A stretch of 64,000 nt of DNA from Candidatus Melainabacteria bacterium (GTDB lineage Bacteria; Cyanobacteriota; Vampirovibrionia; 2-02-FULL-35-15), in NCBI GenBank assembly GCA_023250195.1, contig JAHFBF010000001.1, positions 273,907-337,906 on the forward strand, given 5' to 3'. A program made the position numbers and the translations under genes. Below, piece by piece: positions 12,381 through 32,850 of this stretch. The notes under the pieces are model-generated. The model did no database searches, was not told where the DNA came from, and saw only the letters and a program-made list of their open reading frames with translations. How positions within the stretch are numbered: position 1 is the first letter of the stretch; the number at the start of each line of letters is the position of its first letter.

Positions 12381-12407
12381 CCTGATTCTCTGATCTCTGA
12401 TTCACGC
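12381..12407. repeat. CTGATYTCTGA-type short tandem motif upstream of tRNA-Val
   Basis: cctgattctctgatctctgattcacgc. Related motif copies flank the four-helix-bundle gene (16483-16515, 16921-16949) and lie 5' of tRNA-Pro (32815-32850). Confidence 0.5.
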
Positions 12408-14722: not shown

Positions 14723-15784
14723 TCATACCCCACTTATTAAAACTCTACCAAGACCAACTTGATCTCCAGGTTCAATTCCTCCTTGTGCATCAAGATCAAA
14801 TCTAGCTCCTCCTGTTGGTGGAACCCATCTAATTTCAATTTGACCACCTTGTCCTGCAAAAACAACCATATGACCATGTCCTGGAATTCCACTTTGATCT
14901 GTATAGAGAACTGACCCAGGTGGATATGTCCCTGGTGCTGCTTCACCTAAAACCCTAGTCCACAATAATCTATTAGTTTGTTCAAGGCAACGTGTAAGCC
15001 CTTCGCTTCCCTCTCCTGTAAACCTAGAACGACAGAGTGCCATAGATGTCTGAGTAGCTATAAGTCTTGGATCAAATGGGGTATCTTCACGGGTACTTGC
15101 CATAAGAATTTCATTAAATTTATCATTGAATTCCTGTTCATTAATATAGTGACTACCAGTGGATTCTTGATATTCCTGCCTTGCCTGCATATAAAGTGCA
15201 GTATATTCCTGTGTAGAGATAAATAGTATTCCCTGTGGATCATTAGTCCATGCCCTGTGAAAATTTTGTCTTAAGTTTCTTTGCCAACCTTCTGGCCAAC
15301 GAGTCAACTTATTGTCATCTGCGTTTAACGATATACCACCCAAGTGTTGAATTATATTTTGCCTTCCAGTAGCACCAACATTAAACGTTGTATTCCTATT
15401 AGTTGAATACCAGTTAATTTGAGCATTAATTACAGGATCTGCTCGAAGAGGATGGTTAGTAGCCATTTGAGTTGCAAGATTCCTAAAAAATCGCGCTCGT
15501 TGCGCTTCGTCAGGAATTAACTCATTAATATTTAAAAGTATTTGTCTTTGAGCTTCAAGAAGTTGATCTCTATTTGGAGTACTATTATCAATTCTTGCAG
15601 TAACGATATTTAATAAAGCAGAAATCTCTGCATTAGTATCAATCGCACCACTATTATCTCCACCCTGAAATGAATCTACACTAGAAATTGCTTGAGCTAC
15701 ATTTCCACCTCTAAGTGCTGCACCTACTTGAGTTAATAAAGTGATTTGCTGTGGTGATAACCTTGGGCCAACTGGCGGTGGCAT
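14723..15784 (-). CDS. hypothetical protein; C-terminal region has a Cys...His arrangement suggestive of a papain-like (NlpC/P60/CHAP-like) fold
   Basis: 353-aa uninterrupted ORF in an AT-rich genome; G/A/Q/R-rich composition; ...LTRCLEQTNRLLW...(about 40 aa)...GIPGHGHMVVFAGQ. Confidence 0.45.
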   Translation of the reverse strand: MPPPVGPRLSPQQITLLTQVGAALRGGNVAQAISSVDSFQGGDNSGAIDTNAEISALLNIVTARIDNSTPNRDQLLEAQRQILLNINELIPDEAQRARFFRNLATQMATNHPLRADPVINAQINWYSTNRNTTFNVGATGRQNIIQHLGGISLNADDNKLTRWPEGWQRNLRQNFHRAWTNDPQGILFISTQEYTALYMQARQEYQESTGSHYINEQEFNDKFNEILMASTREDTPFDPRLIATQTSMALCRSRFTGEGSEGLTRCLEQTNRLLWTRVLGEAAPGTYPPGSVLYTDQSGIPGHGHMVVFAGQGGQIEIRWVPPTGGARFDLDAQGGIEPGDQVGLGRVLISGV

Positions 15785-16061: not shown

Positions 16062-16475
16062 TTACTCTTGACATATATGAGCCATAATTTTCTTAAAATC
16101 ATTAATGTTATTTGGCTTCCTAATATAGAAGTCTGCACCATTCTGATAACAGTAATTCATGTCAGAGGATGAATCGGAACTTGTAAAAACCACTGTAGGA
16201 ACTGCTTTAATAGACTTATTTGATTTTATCTTTTTCAGGACTTCAAGTCCGGTAACCTTTGGCAGATTAATATCAAGCAAAATCAAATTCGGCAGTTTCT
16301 CTTTTTCATTCACAAGTTTCATTAAATAGCTGACACCTTCTTCTCCGTTATTAACTACAGAAATGTTACTTTTAATGTTTGCTTTTTTAATTGCAAGCTC
16401 AATTAAAAAGACATCATCAGAATTATCCTCGATAAGTAGTATGTCATAAGTTTTATTATCTATATTTTTTAGCAT
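16062..16475 (-). CDS. single-domain response regulator (CheY-like receiver)
   Basis: LLIEDNSDD ... LILLDINLP ... K-containing receiver motifs; 137 aa. Confidence 0.8.
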   Translation of the reverse strand: MLKNIDNKTYDILLIEDNSDDVFLIELAIKKANIKSNISVVNNGEEGVSYLMKLVNEKEKLPNLILLDINLPKVTGLEVLKKIKSNKSIKAVPTVVFTSSDSSSDMNYCYQNGADFYIRKPNNINDFKKIMAHICQE

Positions 16476-16482
16476 TAGTTTT

Positions 16483-16515
16483 AGAGATGAGAGATCAGAG
16501 GTCAGAGATCAGATT
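16483..16515. repeat. Left inverted repeat (GAGATCAGAG tandem) flanking the four-helix-bundle gene
   Basis: agagatgagagatcagaggtcagagatcagatt. The reverse complement of 16921-16949 is gttcagagatcagagatgggagatcagag. Confidence 0.65.
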
Positions 16516-16920
16516 TTTAGATTTCATTAATTTTTCTGTTGAATTAATAAATCCATTAAGAATTCTTCTTGTTTCATCAATTTGAGTTTTCACATTGTCA
16601 AACACTTCTAAACTTAGATATCCTATGTCCATCGCAAGTAAACAAAAATTCTCAACTTCATATAAAGAACCTCTAGAAATGTATAAGAATCTGATTCTTT
16701 CTTTATAAGAATATCTTCCCATTCCTTCTGCAATATTTGCAGTAATAGACATAACTGCTCTTCTTATTTGACTAACCAAACCAAATAATTCATCTTTTGG
16801 AAAATCCTTTGTCAATTTATAAATTTCCAATGATAATTTGTGTCCATGTTTCCAAGCATCTATATCTGTAAAATATTCTATCTTCTTACTTGTTCTGGTT
16901 TCCAAAATTTCATTTCTCAT
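16495..16920 (-). CDS. four-helix-bundle protein (23S rRNA intervening-sequence protein family, TIGR02436-like)
   Basis: 141 aa, predicted all-helical, with the family-typical ...[42 protein letters not shown]... core. Confidence 0.7.
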
Positions 16921-18278
16921 CTCTGATCTCCCATCTCTGATCTCTGAACTAAAGTAAAGAAAAATTTGCTTCCTTTATTTGATTCTGACTGAAGCCATAT
17001 CTCACAATTATATTTTTCAAGTATTTTTTTTACAATTGCAAGCCCTGCACCTGTTCCTTCATATTCTTCCTGAGTGTGTAACCTTTGAAACAAATCAAAG
17101 ATTTTATCGTGATATTCCCTATCAATCCCAATTCCATTATCTTCAATACAAATGCAAACTTTATCAGAAGGAATTAAGCGGTCACCCACCATACTGATTT
17201 GAACGAGTGGTTTATTTGATTTATTAAACTTTATTCCATTGGAAATCAAATTCTTAAATATTGATTTTATCTTTTCTTTATTACCAATTACTGAAGGTAA
17301 TTTATTCAGCGCGATTACATCTGCATTTCTTTTTTGAATATAAGCAGTCAATTCAAAATTTACTTCCGTTAACAGCATGTTTAAATTCACGATTTCATGT
17401 TCTTTATCTTTCACCCCTCTTGTAGCTCTTGCAAGATTAGTTAAATCCTCTATCAGATTTCTCATCCTCTGAGTAGCTTTTACTATCCGAGAAAGACAAT
17501 CGCCTTGTTTTGGATTTAACTTTGATGTCCCCGGATCATCCTGAATCACACTTACAAAGCTTTCAATAGTTCTTAAAGGCTCTCGCAAATCGTGAGATGC
17601 AATATAAACAAATAAATCCAGTTCTTGATTTACCTGCTTTAAAATATCATTTGCCTGAGCAAGTTCTTTTTCAGACTTTTTTGCAGCTTCTAAAAGATAG
17701 TTTTTTTCAATTGTATTTGTAATTATATTTGCAGTAGTTCTCATGAATGAGAGTTCTTCATCATCAAAAGCATGAGGAGCCACATAATATTTTGTAATTG
17801 TACCTACAGCTTTGTCATTAACTATTATTGGAACAGCTGCAACAGAAACCACCTTCTTTGGTTTTATCGTATCCATGAAATACTTGGAAAAACTCATGTT
17901 CATTTGATCCATATTCTTAATAAGGACAATTTGTTTTTTTAGTATTGCCCGTGCTGAAGGCCAATTATCACGAATATCTCTCGAATAAAGATTTAAAATC
18001 TTTTCTTTATTTCTTATTTCTTTATACTCCTCCGGAAGACCATATGTTGCTTCTACGCATAACTGGTTATCAGGATCCTTTACAAGAAACACCAACCCAT
18101 AATCAGCATCAGTAAGCTCACAAAAAGGCTGAAGAACTTTATGCGCTGCAAGTGCCAGATCAGAAGTAAACAAATCTGAGCAGGTATTTGAAATCTCTTC
18201 TATTGCTTTTAGTCTTTTAAGAGTTTTTTCTAAATTTGTTTGCTTTAATTCAAATTTTTGCTTTGTGACTAATTGCAT
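16917..18278 (-). CDS. sensor histidine kinase (GAF-like sensor, HisKA, HATPase_c)
   Basis: H-box SHDLREPL; N, G1 and G2 boxes ([20 protein letters not shown]). Confidence 0.8.
16921..16949. repeat. Right inverted repeat (CTCTGATCTC tandem) flanking the four-helix-bundle gene; also encodes the HK C-terminus
   Basis: ctctgatctcccatctctgatctctgaac. Confidence 0.65.
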
Positions 18279-24007: not shown

Positions 24008-24099
24008 GCGTCATTGCGAGGAACGCAGTGACGAAGCAATCTCTAAAACGTAAGGAGATTGCCACGTCGGCGCTAAGAGCACCTCCTCGCAATGACGCT
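24008..24099. repeat. Family-A RPE-like element, copy A2, forming the annotated N-terminus of ORF 24028-25353
   Basis: gcgtcattgcgaggaacgcagtgacgaagcaatctc...gagattgccacgtcggcgct...cctcctcgcaatgacgc. Encodes ...EIATSALRAPPRNDA..., the same peptide as in the ligA copy. Confidence 0.75.
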
Positions 24100-25353
24100 A
24101 TCCGTAGAGCCCCTCCTCATAAACCTATGCCTCTTGATCTTAAAAAAGTCATTGTCCAGCTTAAAAACATTGAAAACAATGATGTTCAGAACATAAATAG
24201 AAACAGATTGGATTCTACCTTTAAGCTCTTTGAACTTGCCCTAAGTAATCAGGAAGAACTTAAAGCAAAGCTATATGAAACTCAAGAATCAAAAAAAGCA
24301 AACTTTTTCTTTGCAGTACCTTATAGCGATGGATCATTAGAACAAACTATAAGCTGTAATGAAAACTTTTTACAGCCTCATATAACTGTTGCAACAGACG
24401 GATCACAAATTAGTCCTTCTGCTCATGAAGTTACAGGCTCTTTTTTAATCAATATCGGGCTTGTAAGCATTCCTTACTTTGCCAAAGACATTCCTGTAAA
24501 TCTCTCGTCTGAGCCTACTATTTACAACTCTCAGGAAGAAATAAGTCCAAAGACCGCAAATGAAAATATTCAGGAAGACGATCTAATCTCTTATGAACGA
24601 ACTTTAAAAGAAATAGAAGAATTAGTCAAACTGGCAAAAAGCTACAGCAAATACAGTCTTCCAATCATAGCAATACTGGACGGCACACTTATTCACTGGC
24701 ATATTGAAAAATTCAGCAGCTATTTTATAGAGAACTTTATCAAAAGATTTTCAGATGCAATGCATGAATTAAAATCTCTTCGAATTCCTGTAGCAAGTTT
24801 TCTCAGCAACTCAAGATCAAACGATTTAATAAACATGCTCAGAATCTACAAATGCCCTTATGAATCTGTGGACTGTAAAAAACACTGTGCAAATCTTGAT
24901 TCCAGAAACCTCCCCTGTAATCCGTGCCCAGACTATGCTCCTGTATTAGACAGAAGGTTAGTTGAAAAATATTTTAGTGACAAAAAAATCAAATCAGGGA
25001 CAAGAACAGTTTTATTTAAATCAAATAGTAAAGTATTCAATCACTATCCTGATGATTTAAAGGTGTCATTTTTCTATATGAATACCGGATCTGAAATAGC
25101 AAGAGTGGAAATCCCATCTTATGTGGCTAATGATAAAGACCTGCTTGACTTAACTCACAATGCAGTTGCACTTCAGTGCAAAGTAGGATTTGGTTATCCG
25201 GTAACATTAAGTGAAGCACACTTACAGGCAGTAGTTAATAAGGCAGATCGTCAGGTATTTTATGATCTAATTAAAGAACGATTACTAAAAGGAAGACAAA
25301 TGCCGGTAAGACTTTCAAATAAAGAGTTAAAGAAGAGGGTTAGTTTCGTTTAG
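24028..25353 (+). CDS. hypothetical protein, RNase-H-like fold nuclease candidate (NurA-like?) with a Cys-rich C-terminal region
   Basis: ...HITVATDGSQ... (xDGS acidic motif as in RNase H / NurA). CxxxxxxxCxxxC...CxxC cluster. The alternative start at 24127 (MPLDL...) would exclude the repeat-encoded peptide. Confidence 0.4.
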   Translation: MTKQSLKRKEIATSALRAPPRNDAIRRAPPHKPMPLDLKKVIVQLKNIENNDVQNINRNRLDSTFKLFELALSNQEELKAKLYETQESKKANFFFAVPYSDGSLEQTISCNENFLQPHITVATDGSQISPSAHEVTGSFLINIGLVSIPYFAKDIPVNLSSEPTIYNSQEEISPKTANENIQEDDLISYERTLKEIEELVKLAKSYSKYSLPIIAILDGTLIHWHIEKFSSYFIENFIKRFSDAMHELKSLRIPVASFLSNSRSNDLINMLRIYKCPYESVDCKKHCANLDSRNLPCNPCPDYAPVLDRRLVEKYFSDKKIKSGTRTVLFKSNSKVFNHYPDDLKVSFFYMNTGSEIARVEIPSYVANDKDLLDLTHNAVALQCKVGFGYPVTLSEAHLQAVVNKADRQVFYDLIKERLLKGRQMPVRLSNKELKKRVSFV

Positions 25354-25378
25354 TTTCGTTTAGTTTAGTTTAGTTTAG
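25338..25378. repeat. GTTTAG / GTTTAGTTTC microsatellite spanning two convergent stop codons
   Basis: gttagtttcgtttagtttcgtttagtttagtttagtttag. Confidence 0.8.
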
Positions 25379-32737: not shown

Positions 32738-32811
32738 TCGGGGCGACACGATTTGAACGTGCGACCCCCTGCTCCCAAAGCAGGTGCTCTACCAAGCTGA
32801 GCCACGCCCCG
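32738..32811 (-). tRNA. tRNA-Pro (anticodon TGG)
   Basis: Minus-strand read: CGGGGCG acceptor pairing with CGCCCCG, GCTCAGCTTGGTAGAGC D-arm, anticodon loop TTTGGGA, TTCAAAT T-loop, discriminator A. Confidence 0.9.
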
Positions 32812-32814
32812 AAT

Positions 32815-32850
32815 TCAGAAATCAGTTGTCAGAAATCAGAAAATCAGATT
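32815..32850. repeat. CAGAAATCAG tandem motif (reverse complement CTGATTTCTGA) 5' of tRNA-Pro
   Basis: cagaaatcagttgtcagaaatcagaaaatcagattc. Confidence 0.5.

Follow-up and report, generated by a model that had tools for sequence, protein, structure and literature searches.

A four-helix-bundle gene framed by complementary heptamer arrays: a probable intervening sequence-type cassette at a kinase-regulator junction

To our knowledge, no function has been established for the S23p/four-helix-bundle (4HB) protein family since the early 1990s. Open reading frames (ORFs) of this family (S23p/PF05635) are carried by the 23 S rRNA intervening sequences (IVSs) of Coxiella burnetii and Leptospira (PMC4990558). 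In the Coxiella IVS, tandem GACAGAT heptamers stand before the S23p start and the ends form a 28-bp terminal stem, in which RNase III cuts have been mapped at the first repeat (PMC4990558). Tandem heptamers have also been described as dispersed repeats, including TAACTGA in Beggiatoaceae, cyanobacteria, and Bacteroidetes (PMC4679880) and GGGAATC in Xanthomonas, where 70-75 convergent pairs occur (PMC4692102). A literature search returned no paper that connects the PF05635 family as a whole with inverted heptamer arrays, and the Coxiella 23 S rRNA IVS is the sole published precedent found.

In the window (the whole 64-kb stretch of DNA that was analyzed), a 4HB gene is located between the genes of a histidine kinase and a response regulator, and all three are co-directional (Table 1). 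The ORF list and Pfam placed these ORFs exactly where the original prediction had them, but its spacing required correction. The kinase and 4HB genes are not separated by 1 nt; they share a 4-nt overlap (ATGA, 16917-16920) in which the 4HB start codon overlaps the kinase stop codon, and the gap between the 4HB and regulator genes is 19 nt rather than 20 nt. The kinase, with HisKA and HATPase_c domains, and the receiver-domain protein have the composition of a two-component system operon, and the orthologous pair overlaps directly in a relative (L094).

Assignment of the 4HB protein to its family was clear, with matches to PF05635 (E = 2.4e-37; 127.8 bits, cut-off 33.8; positions 2-106 of the 106 in the profile), TIGR02436 (125.7 bits; cut-off 24), and XCC0516 (PDB 2gsc; E = 3.7e-19). 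In an alignment of the window protein with its homologs (32 sequences in all), Arg-54, Ser-58, and Asn-62 (R54, S58, N62) of the R-x3-S-x3-N-x2-E motif, which is conserved among Xcc0516 homologs (PMC3936711), were invariant, and E65 was conserved in at least 90% of sequences. The same alignment revealed that the protein extends beyond its homologs at both ends, by additional N-terminal residues and by a tail, NLISDL, at the C terminus; this tail is encoded by the 3′ arm of the flanking repeat. The association of TIGR02436-type genes with 23 S intervening sequences and with Avd of diversity-generating retroelements, as stated with the original prediction, agrees with the published record (PMC4990558, PMC10053308).

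Table 1. Coordinates of the kinase-regulator locus and of related heptad arrays within the window
Feature	Position	Strand	Description	Basis
GAF histidine kinase	16917-18278	-	453 aa; Pfam GAF+HisKA+HATPase_c	ORF, ortholog tails, L094 alignment
4HB gene	16495-16920	-	141 aa; PF05635/TIGR02436	Pfam, TIGR02436, PDB 2gsc, homolog alignment
Response regulator	16062-16475	-	137 aa; Pfam Response_reg, receiver domain only	L094 gene table and alignment
Whole inserted cassette	16480-16948	-	~468 bp; 5′ arm, 4HB ORF, and 3′ arm	L094 alignment, inverted repeat 16480-16513/16915-16948
5′ arm (transcript sense)	16912-16948	-	Five purine-rich heptads: CAGAGAT CAGAGAT GGGAGAT CAGAGAT GAGAAAT	Sequence, TRF period 7, inverted repeat
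3′ arm (transcript sense)	16483-16513	-	Pyrimidine-rich: CTGATCT CTGACCT CTGATCT CTCATCT CT	Sequence, TRF, lag-7 scan
Predicted RNA stem-loop	16472-16955	-	16955-16914 pairs with 16514-16472	MFE and centroid folds, duplex energy
Solo heptad array	12382-12401	+	CTGATCT x2.7; ~110 nt upstream of tRNA-Val	TRF, motif search, tRNA prediction
Solo heptad array	32811-32848	-	CTGATTT (minus strand) x5.3; directly 5′ of tRNA-Pro	TRF, sequence, tRNA prediction

The proposal that inverted tandem repeats stand on either side of the 4HB gene was borne out by the arms themselves and by scores far above those of shuffles, although the repeat ends given as 16515 and 16949 lie at 16513 and 16948. Both arms were resolved by TRF as period-7 tandem arrays, AGAGATC x4.4 (16483-16513) and TCTGATC x4.7 (16915-16947), the former being the sole stretch in 64 kb to pass a strict lag-7 self-match test. 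Inverted arms of 35 nt with 83% complementarity were found at 16483-16517 and 16904-16938, and equivalent pairings also exist at shifts of 7 or 14 nt. The ungapped inverted-repeat score at the locus was 20.5, compared with 8.3 ± 1.1 in shuffles, and the energy of the arm RNA duplex was -44.4 kcal/mol, compared with -17.3 ± 3.7 kcal/mol in shuffles (best shuffle, -31.2). Pairing of the arms was present in both the MFE and centroid folds (z = -4.67), giving a predicted stem of 34 bp that has single-base mismatches approximately every 7 nt and encloses the 4HB ORF.

The arms are closely interwoven with the ends of the genes. As had been noted, they encode the tails of the kinase (...QRSEMGDQR*) and of the 4HB protein (...NLISDL*). 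The 5′ arm holds the kinase stop codon, the ATGA overlap, and a Shine-Dalgarno-like GGAG (16931-16928) 7 nt ahead of the 4HB start; the 4HB stop codon lies in the 3′ arm, whose end is 7 nt ahead of the regulator ATG. In a scan of the cassette region, promoter-like sites were no more numerous than expected by chance and a terminator was not detected, and comparison of the arms with Rfam gave Ocean-VII matches on both, far below threshold, and nothing else.

The original prediction that a cassette had been inserted into a two-component operon is supported by the empty junction in the relative, whose kinase is 83% identical and directly overlaps the regulator. In a pairwise alignment, homology between the window and this locus stops just past the shared ...FFFTL codons and restarts at the start region of the regulator, and the cassette therefore occupies the place of ~24 nt of kinase tail. 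The last 9 residues of the window kinase and its stop codon are supplied by the 5′ arm, so that the suggestion of a new C terminus holds: all 24 kinase orthologs examined (59-84% identity) have short, unrelated tails after ...FFFTL, and the repeat-encoded tail was found in none of them. Neither a 4HB gene nor a heptad remnant was detected downstream of the kinase in three orthologous arrangements on five contigs (L090-L092, L093, and L094). Comparison of the orthologous operons, the check proposed with the original prediction, yielded an overlapping pair; a repeat-free 4HB gene at this site in relatives, or repeats conserved in kinase orthologs, was not encountered. By parsimony, these sequences suggest gain at this site rather than loss in the relatives. 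The base composition of the cassette is host-like, which argues that the insertion is not recent. Copies from three other readable samples were identical across the region compared, with no polymorphism of the arms, and tblastn detected no further 4HB copies within the 64-kb window.

Other repeat-flanked copies, which had also been suggested as a check, were found elsewhere. The closest 4HB homologs (~70% identity) occur in three other contexts unrelated to this one, and in each the gene has separate inverted heptad arms of 32-36 nt, whose heptamers (AGAGCTG, AGAGATG, and AGAGAWC) are related yet different. One of these genes lies among CheA, CheB, and PAS genes (L004) and another between two receiver-domain genes (L009).

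A family-wide survey was performed on one set of loci from different species, using an inverted-repeat score threshold of at least 14 and displaced windows as controls. The family is very large: with ~2,900 candidates scored, 2,912 clusters matched, and of the first 600 hits to the pattern in species genomes, confirmation was obtained for 599. Inverted flanks were observed at 47 of 76 loci in this first sample, compared with 0 of 270 displaced controls; the remaining 29 loci fell under the threshold, and a few loci had direct instead of inverted arrays. A metagenome scan for closer relatives of the cassette gave nothing above 55% identity, and its loci were used solely as an independent replication sample, in which 37 of 66 had inverted flanks against 0 of 163 controls (0 of 433 controls for both samples pooled). 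Where arms were periodic, the period was 7 in 62 of 66 cases in the first sample and 38 of 46 in the metagenome sample. The 5′ arm was purine-rich at 35 of 44 loci (p = 1e-4; metagenome sample, 30 of 36), and the upstream neighbor was co-directional at 61 of 70, usually with a short gap. The framed layout spans many bacterial and some archaeal lineages and most sampled family members, including those of the cultured cyanobacteria Nostoc punctiforme and Calothrix brevissima. The heptamer varies from locus to locus while the two arms within one locus remain complementary, and higher protein identity was accompanied by a smaller heptamer distance; the ORF and its arms thus evolve as one unit. For definition of the cassette ends, the Nostoc PCC 7120/Calothrix plasmid duplications were uninformative because they either continue into IS elements or comprise entire 3-kb blocks.

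Heptads are also found outside the cassette. The claim that the same motif marks the tRNA loci was correct for tRNA-Val, ~110 nt upstream of which an exact CTGATCTCTGA is present (12390-12400), but the array directly 5′ of tRNA-Pro, CTGATTTCTGA when read on the strand of that gene, is only a related one. The array near tRNA-Val is oriented like the 3′ arm of the cassette. As a general rule, adjacency to tRNA genes was rejected, since only 3 of 83 cassettes lie directly upstream of a tRNA, with no clear enrichment.

Taken together, the data are best explained by an IVS-type selfish cassette, in which a promoterless PF05635/TIGR02436 gene with complementary heptamer arms was inserted at a formerly overlapping kinase-regulator junction of a Melainabacteria-like genome; we assign this reading a probability of roughly 70%. 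The cassette would be transcribed by read-through from the host operon, and on the RNA the arms would pair into a double-stranded stem. As in the Coxiella 23 S IVS, RNase III may cut this stem, which would excise the 4HB segment and uncouple the kinase and regulator messages. Ribosomes that finish the kinase would open the 5′ arm and re-initiate at the 4HB start codon, and expression of the 4HB protein would therefore depend on host translation. Such a selfish passenger would presumably be tolerated where cutting of the RNA is harmless, namely between cistrons, beside tRNAs, and in rRNA expansion helices. For the locus itself, expression of the kinase and regulator is predicted to be uncoupled relative to the ancestral overlapping arrangement.

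A possible but rather doubtful alternative is that the element operates mainly as DNA, the inverted heptad arrays being the functional ends, or hairpin or cruciform substrates, of a mobile or recombination-prone unit. Complementarity would then be kept by template switching, gene conversion, or slippage, and the RNA stem would be a by-product; this explanation overlaps that of the IVS-type cassette, and the two are not mutually exclusive. Selection for a sense-RNA stem only would be expected to generate an excess of G:U-compatible mismatches between the arms, but these numbered 44 against 45 A:C in the first sample and 40 against 40 in the metagenome sample. The asymmetry sought as a sign of sense-RNA selection thus found no support in either sample, and the strand symmetry implies that complementarity may be maintained at the DNA level. 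Consistent with this, the antisense strand of the window arms forms an equally good duplex (-46.8 kcal/mol), and very regular arrays at some loci, such as the seven perfect CTGGTGA units at locus L058, suggest ongoing slippage or homogenization. Within the same heptamer family, inverted pairs that lack an ORF and solo arrays also occur nearby, and the junction is conserved except for the cassette, which may be present or missing. Against a DNA-level element, no nuclease, recombinase, or transposase activity is known for the 4HB fold. Compared with an insertion sequence or a MITE, the cassette likewise has inverted ends, and the only ORF between them encodes the 4HB protein, without a transposase domain (Pfam). 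No target-site duplication was seen, the only empty site being that of a diverged relative (83% protein identity) against which a duplication or a defined element end is unreadable. Also against a DNA-level element, the arms are polar with respect to the gene (purine-rich 5′ arm, co-directional upstream gene, and Shine-Dalgarno-like site in the arm) and therefore fit a transcript-level function, and cutting of such a stem by RNase III has been demonstrated in Coxiella (PMC4990558).

It is very improbable that the 4HB protein is a domesticated accessory or modulator of this two-component system and the repeats mere operon punctuation. Its tight embedding, with the ATGA overlap on the kinase side and the short gap to the regulator, would suit such a role, as would the presence of two of the three closest homologs among signaling genes (L004 and L009). 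However, the kinase-regulator pair of the relative (L094) does without the 4HB gene, which is also missing at other kinase orthologs; the repeat frame recurs across the family irrespective of context, and the contexts are diverse, members lying in rRNA (PMC4990558, PMC11270868), between cas genes (PMC3936711), upstream of tRNAs, and downstream of a tRNA-guanine transglycosylase gene. The idea that the 4HB gene is the Avd accessory of an intact or remnant diversity-generating retroelement is scarcely credible and is effectively refuted at this locus: PF05635 proteins are homologous to Avd (PMC10053308) and a weak match to NF033474 was obtained (E = 5.5e-6), but its 26.6 bits fall well below the cut-off of 80, no ORF of at least 110 aa in the 64-kb window contains the YxDD motif of reverse transcriptase, and the neighbors are housekeeping genes. 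The chance that the inverted repeat is a fortuitous match or ordinary kinase and 4HB coding sequence is negligible, since, even though coding sequence extends into the arms on both sides, the arm scores lie far beyond both shuffles and displaced controls, which refute this origin, the repeat-encoded tails are missing from kinase orthologs and 4HB homologs, and the same frame surrounds homologs with different heptamers.

The survey points to a widespread selfish cassette of which no description was found in the literature. With considerable reserve, it might be extended to a single pan-prokaryotic class of PF05635 4HB genes with inverted heptamer arms. ORF-bearing 23 S and 16 S rRNA intervening sequences would then be the subset that landed in rRNA, and dispersed heptamer arrays (STRR, GGGAATC, TAACTGA, and the tRNA-side solo arrays) would be solo or ORF-less derivatives. 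A pentameric 4HB protein would act on the heptads, as RNA or DNA, in the manner of RAYT on REP. If heptad framing is general and the genes are transcript passengers, several puzzles would share one testable explanation, namely the location of PF05635 genes inside rRNA, in cas operons, and between unrelated genes, the over-representation of heptamers in many bacterial genomes, and the origin of intervening sequences. For annotation, a neighboring 4HB gene is not proof of functional linkage, and such cassettes give host genes new C termini and stop codons and may break up operon transcripts.

Among known systems, integron cassettes resemble the present element in being promoterless, co-directional, single-ORF units with imperfect inverted repeats at their bounds. 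They differ in having one attC downstream of the ORF, a GTTRRRY core, and arrays beside an integrase; here, a solitary element inside a host operon has heptad arms on both sides and no GTTRRRY core in the arm sequences, and an integron cassette was accordingly rejected. An analogy is offered by REP/RAYT (REPIN) elements, in which a single small gene stands between inverted short repeats that are also scattered genome-wide. REP sequences are scattered in the genome alone or as hairpin-forming pairs. However, RAYT is a tyrosine (HUH) transposase of known mechanism, while no enzymatic activity is known for the 4HB protein, and REPs are palindromic units rather than tandem heptamers. Avd has a homologous four-helix-bundle fold (PF05635-like), and both Avd and the crystallized homolog Xcc0516 are reportedly pentamers; the difference here is that a reverse transcriptase is absent and the score is under the cut-off of the Avd model. 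Inverted heptad arms are not known to us as a feature of diversity-generating retroelements.

The dispersed heptamer repeats, to which the STRR heptamers of Calothrix and Nostoc also belong, likewise have a period of 7, with 2-6 or more units per array; most lie between genes, near gene ends or start codons, and they occur solo or as convergent pairs with a lineage-specific unit. The CTGATCT and CTGATTT of the window share the CTGA core of TAACTGA and are also found solo beside two tRNAs. The papers on those arrays did not link them to PF05635 genes, whereas here the arrays are paired around one. The 23 S IVS differs in its host RNA, which is helix 25 or 45 of 23 S rRNA rather than a two-component operon; a gathering-threshold Rfam scan of the whole 64 kb found no rRNA and only two tRNAs. 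The arms here also extend into two ORFs and alter their ends, the heptamer is AGAGATC rather than GACAGAT, and excision by RNase III, demonstrated for Coxiella, is proposed here by analogy. By contrast, the architecture is shared: a promoterless ORF of the same protein family inside terminal inverted repeats, a stem of ~28-34 bp, heptamers directly upstream of the start codon, a purine-rich Shine-Dalgarno-like site in the stem, and a similar size, 428-444 nt in Coxiella and ~468 nt here.

Three minus-strand genes were identified at the locus by open reading frame (ORF) calling and Pfam searches, at the positions originally predicted. The predicted gaps of 1 and 20 nt were slightly off, as the kinase stop overlaps the start of the four-helix-bundle (4HB) gene and 19 nt separate the 4HB stop from the regulator ATG. 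The 4HB protein scored 125.7 bits against the TIGR02436 profile (cut-off 24) and matched XCC0516, a crystallised Xanthomonas protein; on profile evidence, it is assigned to PF05635/TIGR02436.

Positions of genes, repeat arms and heptad arrays in the window and at loci with 4HB homologues
Feature	Locus	Position	Strand	Remarks
Histidine kinase gene	window	16917-18278	-	GAF-HisKA-HATPase_c; ORF and Pfam
4HB gene	window	16495-16920	-	full-length PF05635 match, E 2.4e-37; ORF and Pfam
Response regulator gene	window	16062-16475	-	receiver domain; ORF and Pfam
Kinase stop/4HB start overlap	window	16917-16920	-	ATGA
Cassette	window	16480-16948	-	about 468 bp
Inverted arms	window	16483-16517/16904-16938		35 nt, 83% complementary
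Strict lag-7 stretch	window	16483-16513		within one arm
Predicted stem	window	16955-16914/16514-16472	-	34 bp
Weak RF03092 match	window	16921-16952	-	16.4 bits
Weak RF03092 match	window	16475-16514	+	14.8 bits
353-aa ORF	window	14723-15784	-	GC about 0.38-0.42 vs 0.34
Solo array CTGATCT x2.7	window	12382-12401		3'-arm orientation; about 110 nt upstream of tRNA-Val
Solo array CTGATTT x5.3	window	32811-32848		3'-arm orientation; abuts tRNA-Pro, 5' side
TTAGT x7.8	window	25340-25378		end of 24028-25353 ORF
Cassette between PAS ORFs	L004	2241-5058		
Alternative pairings	L004	3958-4463		
ORF-less inverted pair	L009	3305-3341/3384-3421		
ORF-less inverted pair	L009	3440-3510		
ORF-less inverted pair	L009	6871-6907/6934-6962		
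Long heptad array	L074	2538-2952		beside 4HB gene
Long heptad arrays	L044	912-1096, 5709-6050		beside 4HB gene

Orthologues of the kinase were labelled Candidatus Melainabacteria. Five contigs (L090-L094) represented three orthologous arrangements with neighbours as in the window, namely pheS, HD, a divergent hybrid kinase and a mechanosensitive channel. In L094, the kinase (83% identical) overlaps the regulator by 8 nt, and the cassette is absent from the junction. Homology with the window ends just past the ...FFFTL codons and restarts at TAAAACTAATG, the regulator start; the cassette has thus taken the place of about 24 nt at the kinase end. A different gene lies downstream of the kinase in L090-L092 and L093, and no heptads were seen in their kinase 3' flanks. 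Short, unrelated tails followed ...KGSKFFFTL in all 24 orthologues examined, and the repeat-encoded tail of the window kinase, ...QRSEMGDQR, occurred in none; the cassette has rewritten the kinase C terminus, as had been proposed. Neither a 4HB gene lacking repeats in relatives nor conservation of the repeats as kinase coding sequence was observed. The most parsimonious reading of this comparison with a single, diverged empty site is that the cassette was inserted into a kinase-regulator operon.

The region downstream of the operon is a variable slot. In the window, the regulator and mechanosensitive-channel genes are separated by a 353-aa ORF that has no Pfam match and whose GC is slightly raised. 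The slot holds no gene in L094, and L090-L093, in which the regulator is absent, have other Pfam-less genes of 636-797 aa.

As originally claimed, inverted repeats bracket the 4HB gene. Each arm is a tandem array of period 7 (AGAGATC x4.4 in one, TCTGATC x4.7 in the other), and a single stretch in the 64-kb window, within one arm, passed a strict lag-7 test. Arm complementarity is far above chance expectation, with an ungapped inverted-repeat (IR) score of 20.5 compared with 8.3 ± 1.1 in shuffles and a duplex energy of -44.4 kcal/mol compared with -17.3 ± 3.7. When a 501-nt minus-strand RNA was folded, both the MFE and centroid predictions contained the same stem, enclosing the ORF and having single mismatches about every 7th base; registers shifted by 7 or 14 nt can also pair. 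The last kinase codons and the kinase stop fall within the 5' arm, as do the 4HB start and, 7 nt before it, a Shine-Dalgarno-like GGAG; the 4HB stop falls within the 3' arm, whose end is 7 nt from the regulator ATG. Both arms, read in the purine-rich orientation, weakly matched Ocean-VII RNA (RF03092, Rfam; gathering score 53.5), which is probably a compositional effect. The TTAGT pentanucleotide repeat in the window is unrelated to the heptads.

Other copies of the framed cassette were sought. The nearest 4HB homologues, about 70% identical, occur in unrelated contexts (between an RR-PAS gene and a PAS gene of a chemotaxis cluster, after a tRNA-guanine transglycosylase gene and between two receiver-domain genes), always co-directional with flanking genes, and each has its own inverted heptad arms of 32-36 nt (AGAGCTG, AGAGATG and AGAGAWC). 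In L004, a 578-aa RR-PAS ORF and a 192-aa PAS-only ORF, both on the cassette strand, flank the cassette, which may have split one sensor gene into two. The 3' pyrimidine arm of this cassette can pair in two mutually exclusive ways, with the distal 5' arm around the ORF (91% over 32 nt) or with another purine-rich array that closely follows the stop (84% over 31 nt, 18-nt loop); L011, L037, L071 and L086 are arranged likewise.

The survey was extended to 80 loci from 80 species genomes found via the family alignment (76 testable) and to 66 testable metagenome loci, with ORF starts set by rule and neighbour strands taken from long ORFs rather than gene calls. The species-genome sample included candidate-phyla-radiation groups, Bacteroidota, Acidobacteriota, Planctomycetota, Chloroflexota, Gammaproteobacteria, Deltaproteobacteria and two archaeal MAGs. 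At most loci of this sample, tandem heptamers precede the 4HB gene and their reverse complement follows it, the heptamer varying by locus (CTGGTGA, AAGAAGT, GTACCAA, CAGCTTT and others). IR scores of at least 14 were obtained for 47 of 76 species-genome loci, the other 29 falling below this threshold, and for 37 of 66 metagenome loci, compared with 0 of 270 (maximum 13) and 0 of 163 displaced control pairs, respectively. The period was 7 in 62/66 and 38/46 periodic arms of the two samples; period-7 arrays occurred in 4 of 274 control windows. The arms are polarised, the 5' arm being purine-rich at 35 of 44 loci (p 1e-4) in the first sample and 30 of 36 in the second. Neighbours were co-directional upstream at 61/70 loci and downstream at 49/65, usually with short gaps. 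Heptamer distance decreased with protein identity (rho -0.20, p 1e-7; mean Hamming distance 2.0 at ≥65% identity and 3.5 below 45%), and therefore ORF and arms diverge as one unit, the arms staying complementary. Cultured strains also have the layout (Nostoc punctiforme pNPUN01, with CAGGAGT; Calothrix brevissima, with GGGTGTA), and it is therefore not a metagenome-assembly artefact. Two cassettes in one Terriglobales MAG (L049 and L055) have different heptamers, GGTCAGT and GAAGACY; the heptamer is thus specific to the cassette, not the genome. The alpha and gamma plasmids of Nostoc PCC 7120 carry 4HB genes that encode the same annotated protein and are about 91% identical in DNA. Both genes keep a CTCTGCC array downstream; no complementary array is visible upstream, where an ISL3-family element ends and may have displaced the 5' arm.

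Additional heptad arrays lie beyond the cassette at many loci, among them close inverted pairs of the same heptamer family without a 4HB ORF, as in L009, and a local hairpin in L004. At a few loci, arrays are direct instead of inverted. The L009 pairs share the heptamer family of the adjoining cassette and look like its miniature relatives; in one of them, the 3' half is partly duplicated and the 5' arm is followed by a short stub that starts with ATG. In two Bacteroidota MAGs (L074 and L044), AGAAGTT/AGGAGTT arrays reach about 400 nt, far more than a stem requires. Heptad arrays also lie 5' of both window tRNAs, as had been noted for the motif, the tRNA-Pro unit being related only. No 4HB remnant was found beside these two arrays, which may have been left behind by lost cassettes or may have arisen independently.

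In a scan of the cassette region, promoter-like sites were not in excess and a terminator was absent. On the most likely model, the cassette would be promoterless and carried on the operon transcript, where the arms would form double-stranded RNA cut by RNase III, as in Coxiella, freeing the 4HB segment and separating the kinase and regulator messages. Cleavage farther down the stem could even deprive the kinase message of its stop codon, which sits at the top of the 5' arm. On reaching the end of the kinase ORF, ribosomes would melt the stem and start again on the 4HB gene, whose start codon overlaps the kinase stop. Such an element would be tolerated wherever RNA cutting does little harm, which would explain sites between cistrons, before tRNAs (as seen in L016, L022 and L055) and in rRNA expansion helices.

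The chief rival explanation, that a DNA-level process maintains arm complementarity or that a DNA-level structure is the functional one, may hold, given that G:U-compatible and A:C mismatches are equally frequent in the arms (44 vs 45 and 40 vs 40 in the two samples) and that the sense and antisense strands of the window arms fold equally well; it and the RNA model are not mutually exclusive. A dedicated partnership of the 4HB protein with the window two-component system is unlikely, as the family is context-independent and the orthologous kinase-regulator pair in L094 lacks the gene. A role in a diversity-generating retroelement (DGR) at this locus was excluded: none of the window ORFs of at least 110 aa has a reverse-transcriptase YxDD motif, and the Avd model score is 26.6 against a cut-off of 80.

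The window locus is one of very many, and its interest lies in the family-wide rule that it exposes. PF05635 ORFs have been described within insertions that candidate-phyla bacteria carry in 16S and 23S rRNA (PMC11270868) and between cas genes, where they were taken as functionally associated (PMC3936711). The originally stated link of TIGR02436-type genes to 23S rRNA intervening sequences (IVS) and DGRs is established in the literature (PMC4990558, PMC10053308), the latter through homology to Avd. No paper stating a general association of PF05635 with inverted heptamers was found in full-text literature of incomplete coverage. GGGAATC arrays dispersed in Xanthomonas, with 70-75 convergent pairs (PMC4692102), and TAACTGA arrays of Beggiatoaceae, cyanobacteria and Bacteroidetes, most of which lie shortly before start codons (PMC4679880), were published without a link to PF05635 genes; 4HB cassettes are possibly connected to such unexplained repeats. 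The Coxiella 23S IVS is a 428-444-nt element with a 28-bp terminal stem, a purine-rich Shine-Dalgarno-like site, three tandem GACAGAT heptamers preceding the S23p start and RNase III cuts mapped at the first of these (PMC4990558). Its anatomy is almost identical to that of the window cassette. Given that no rRNA is present in the 64-kb window, the cassette is not a 23S IVS; by analogy, it would be an IVS-type cassette that works like an intervening sequence, residing in a protein-coding kinase-regulator operon rather than in rRNA.
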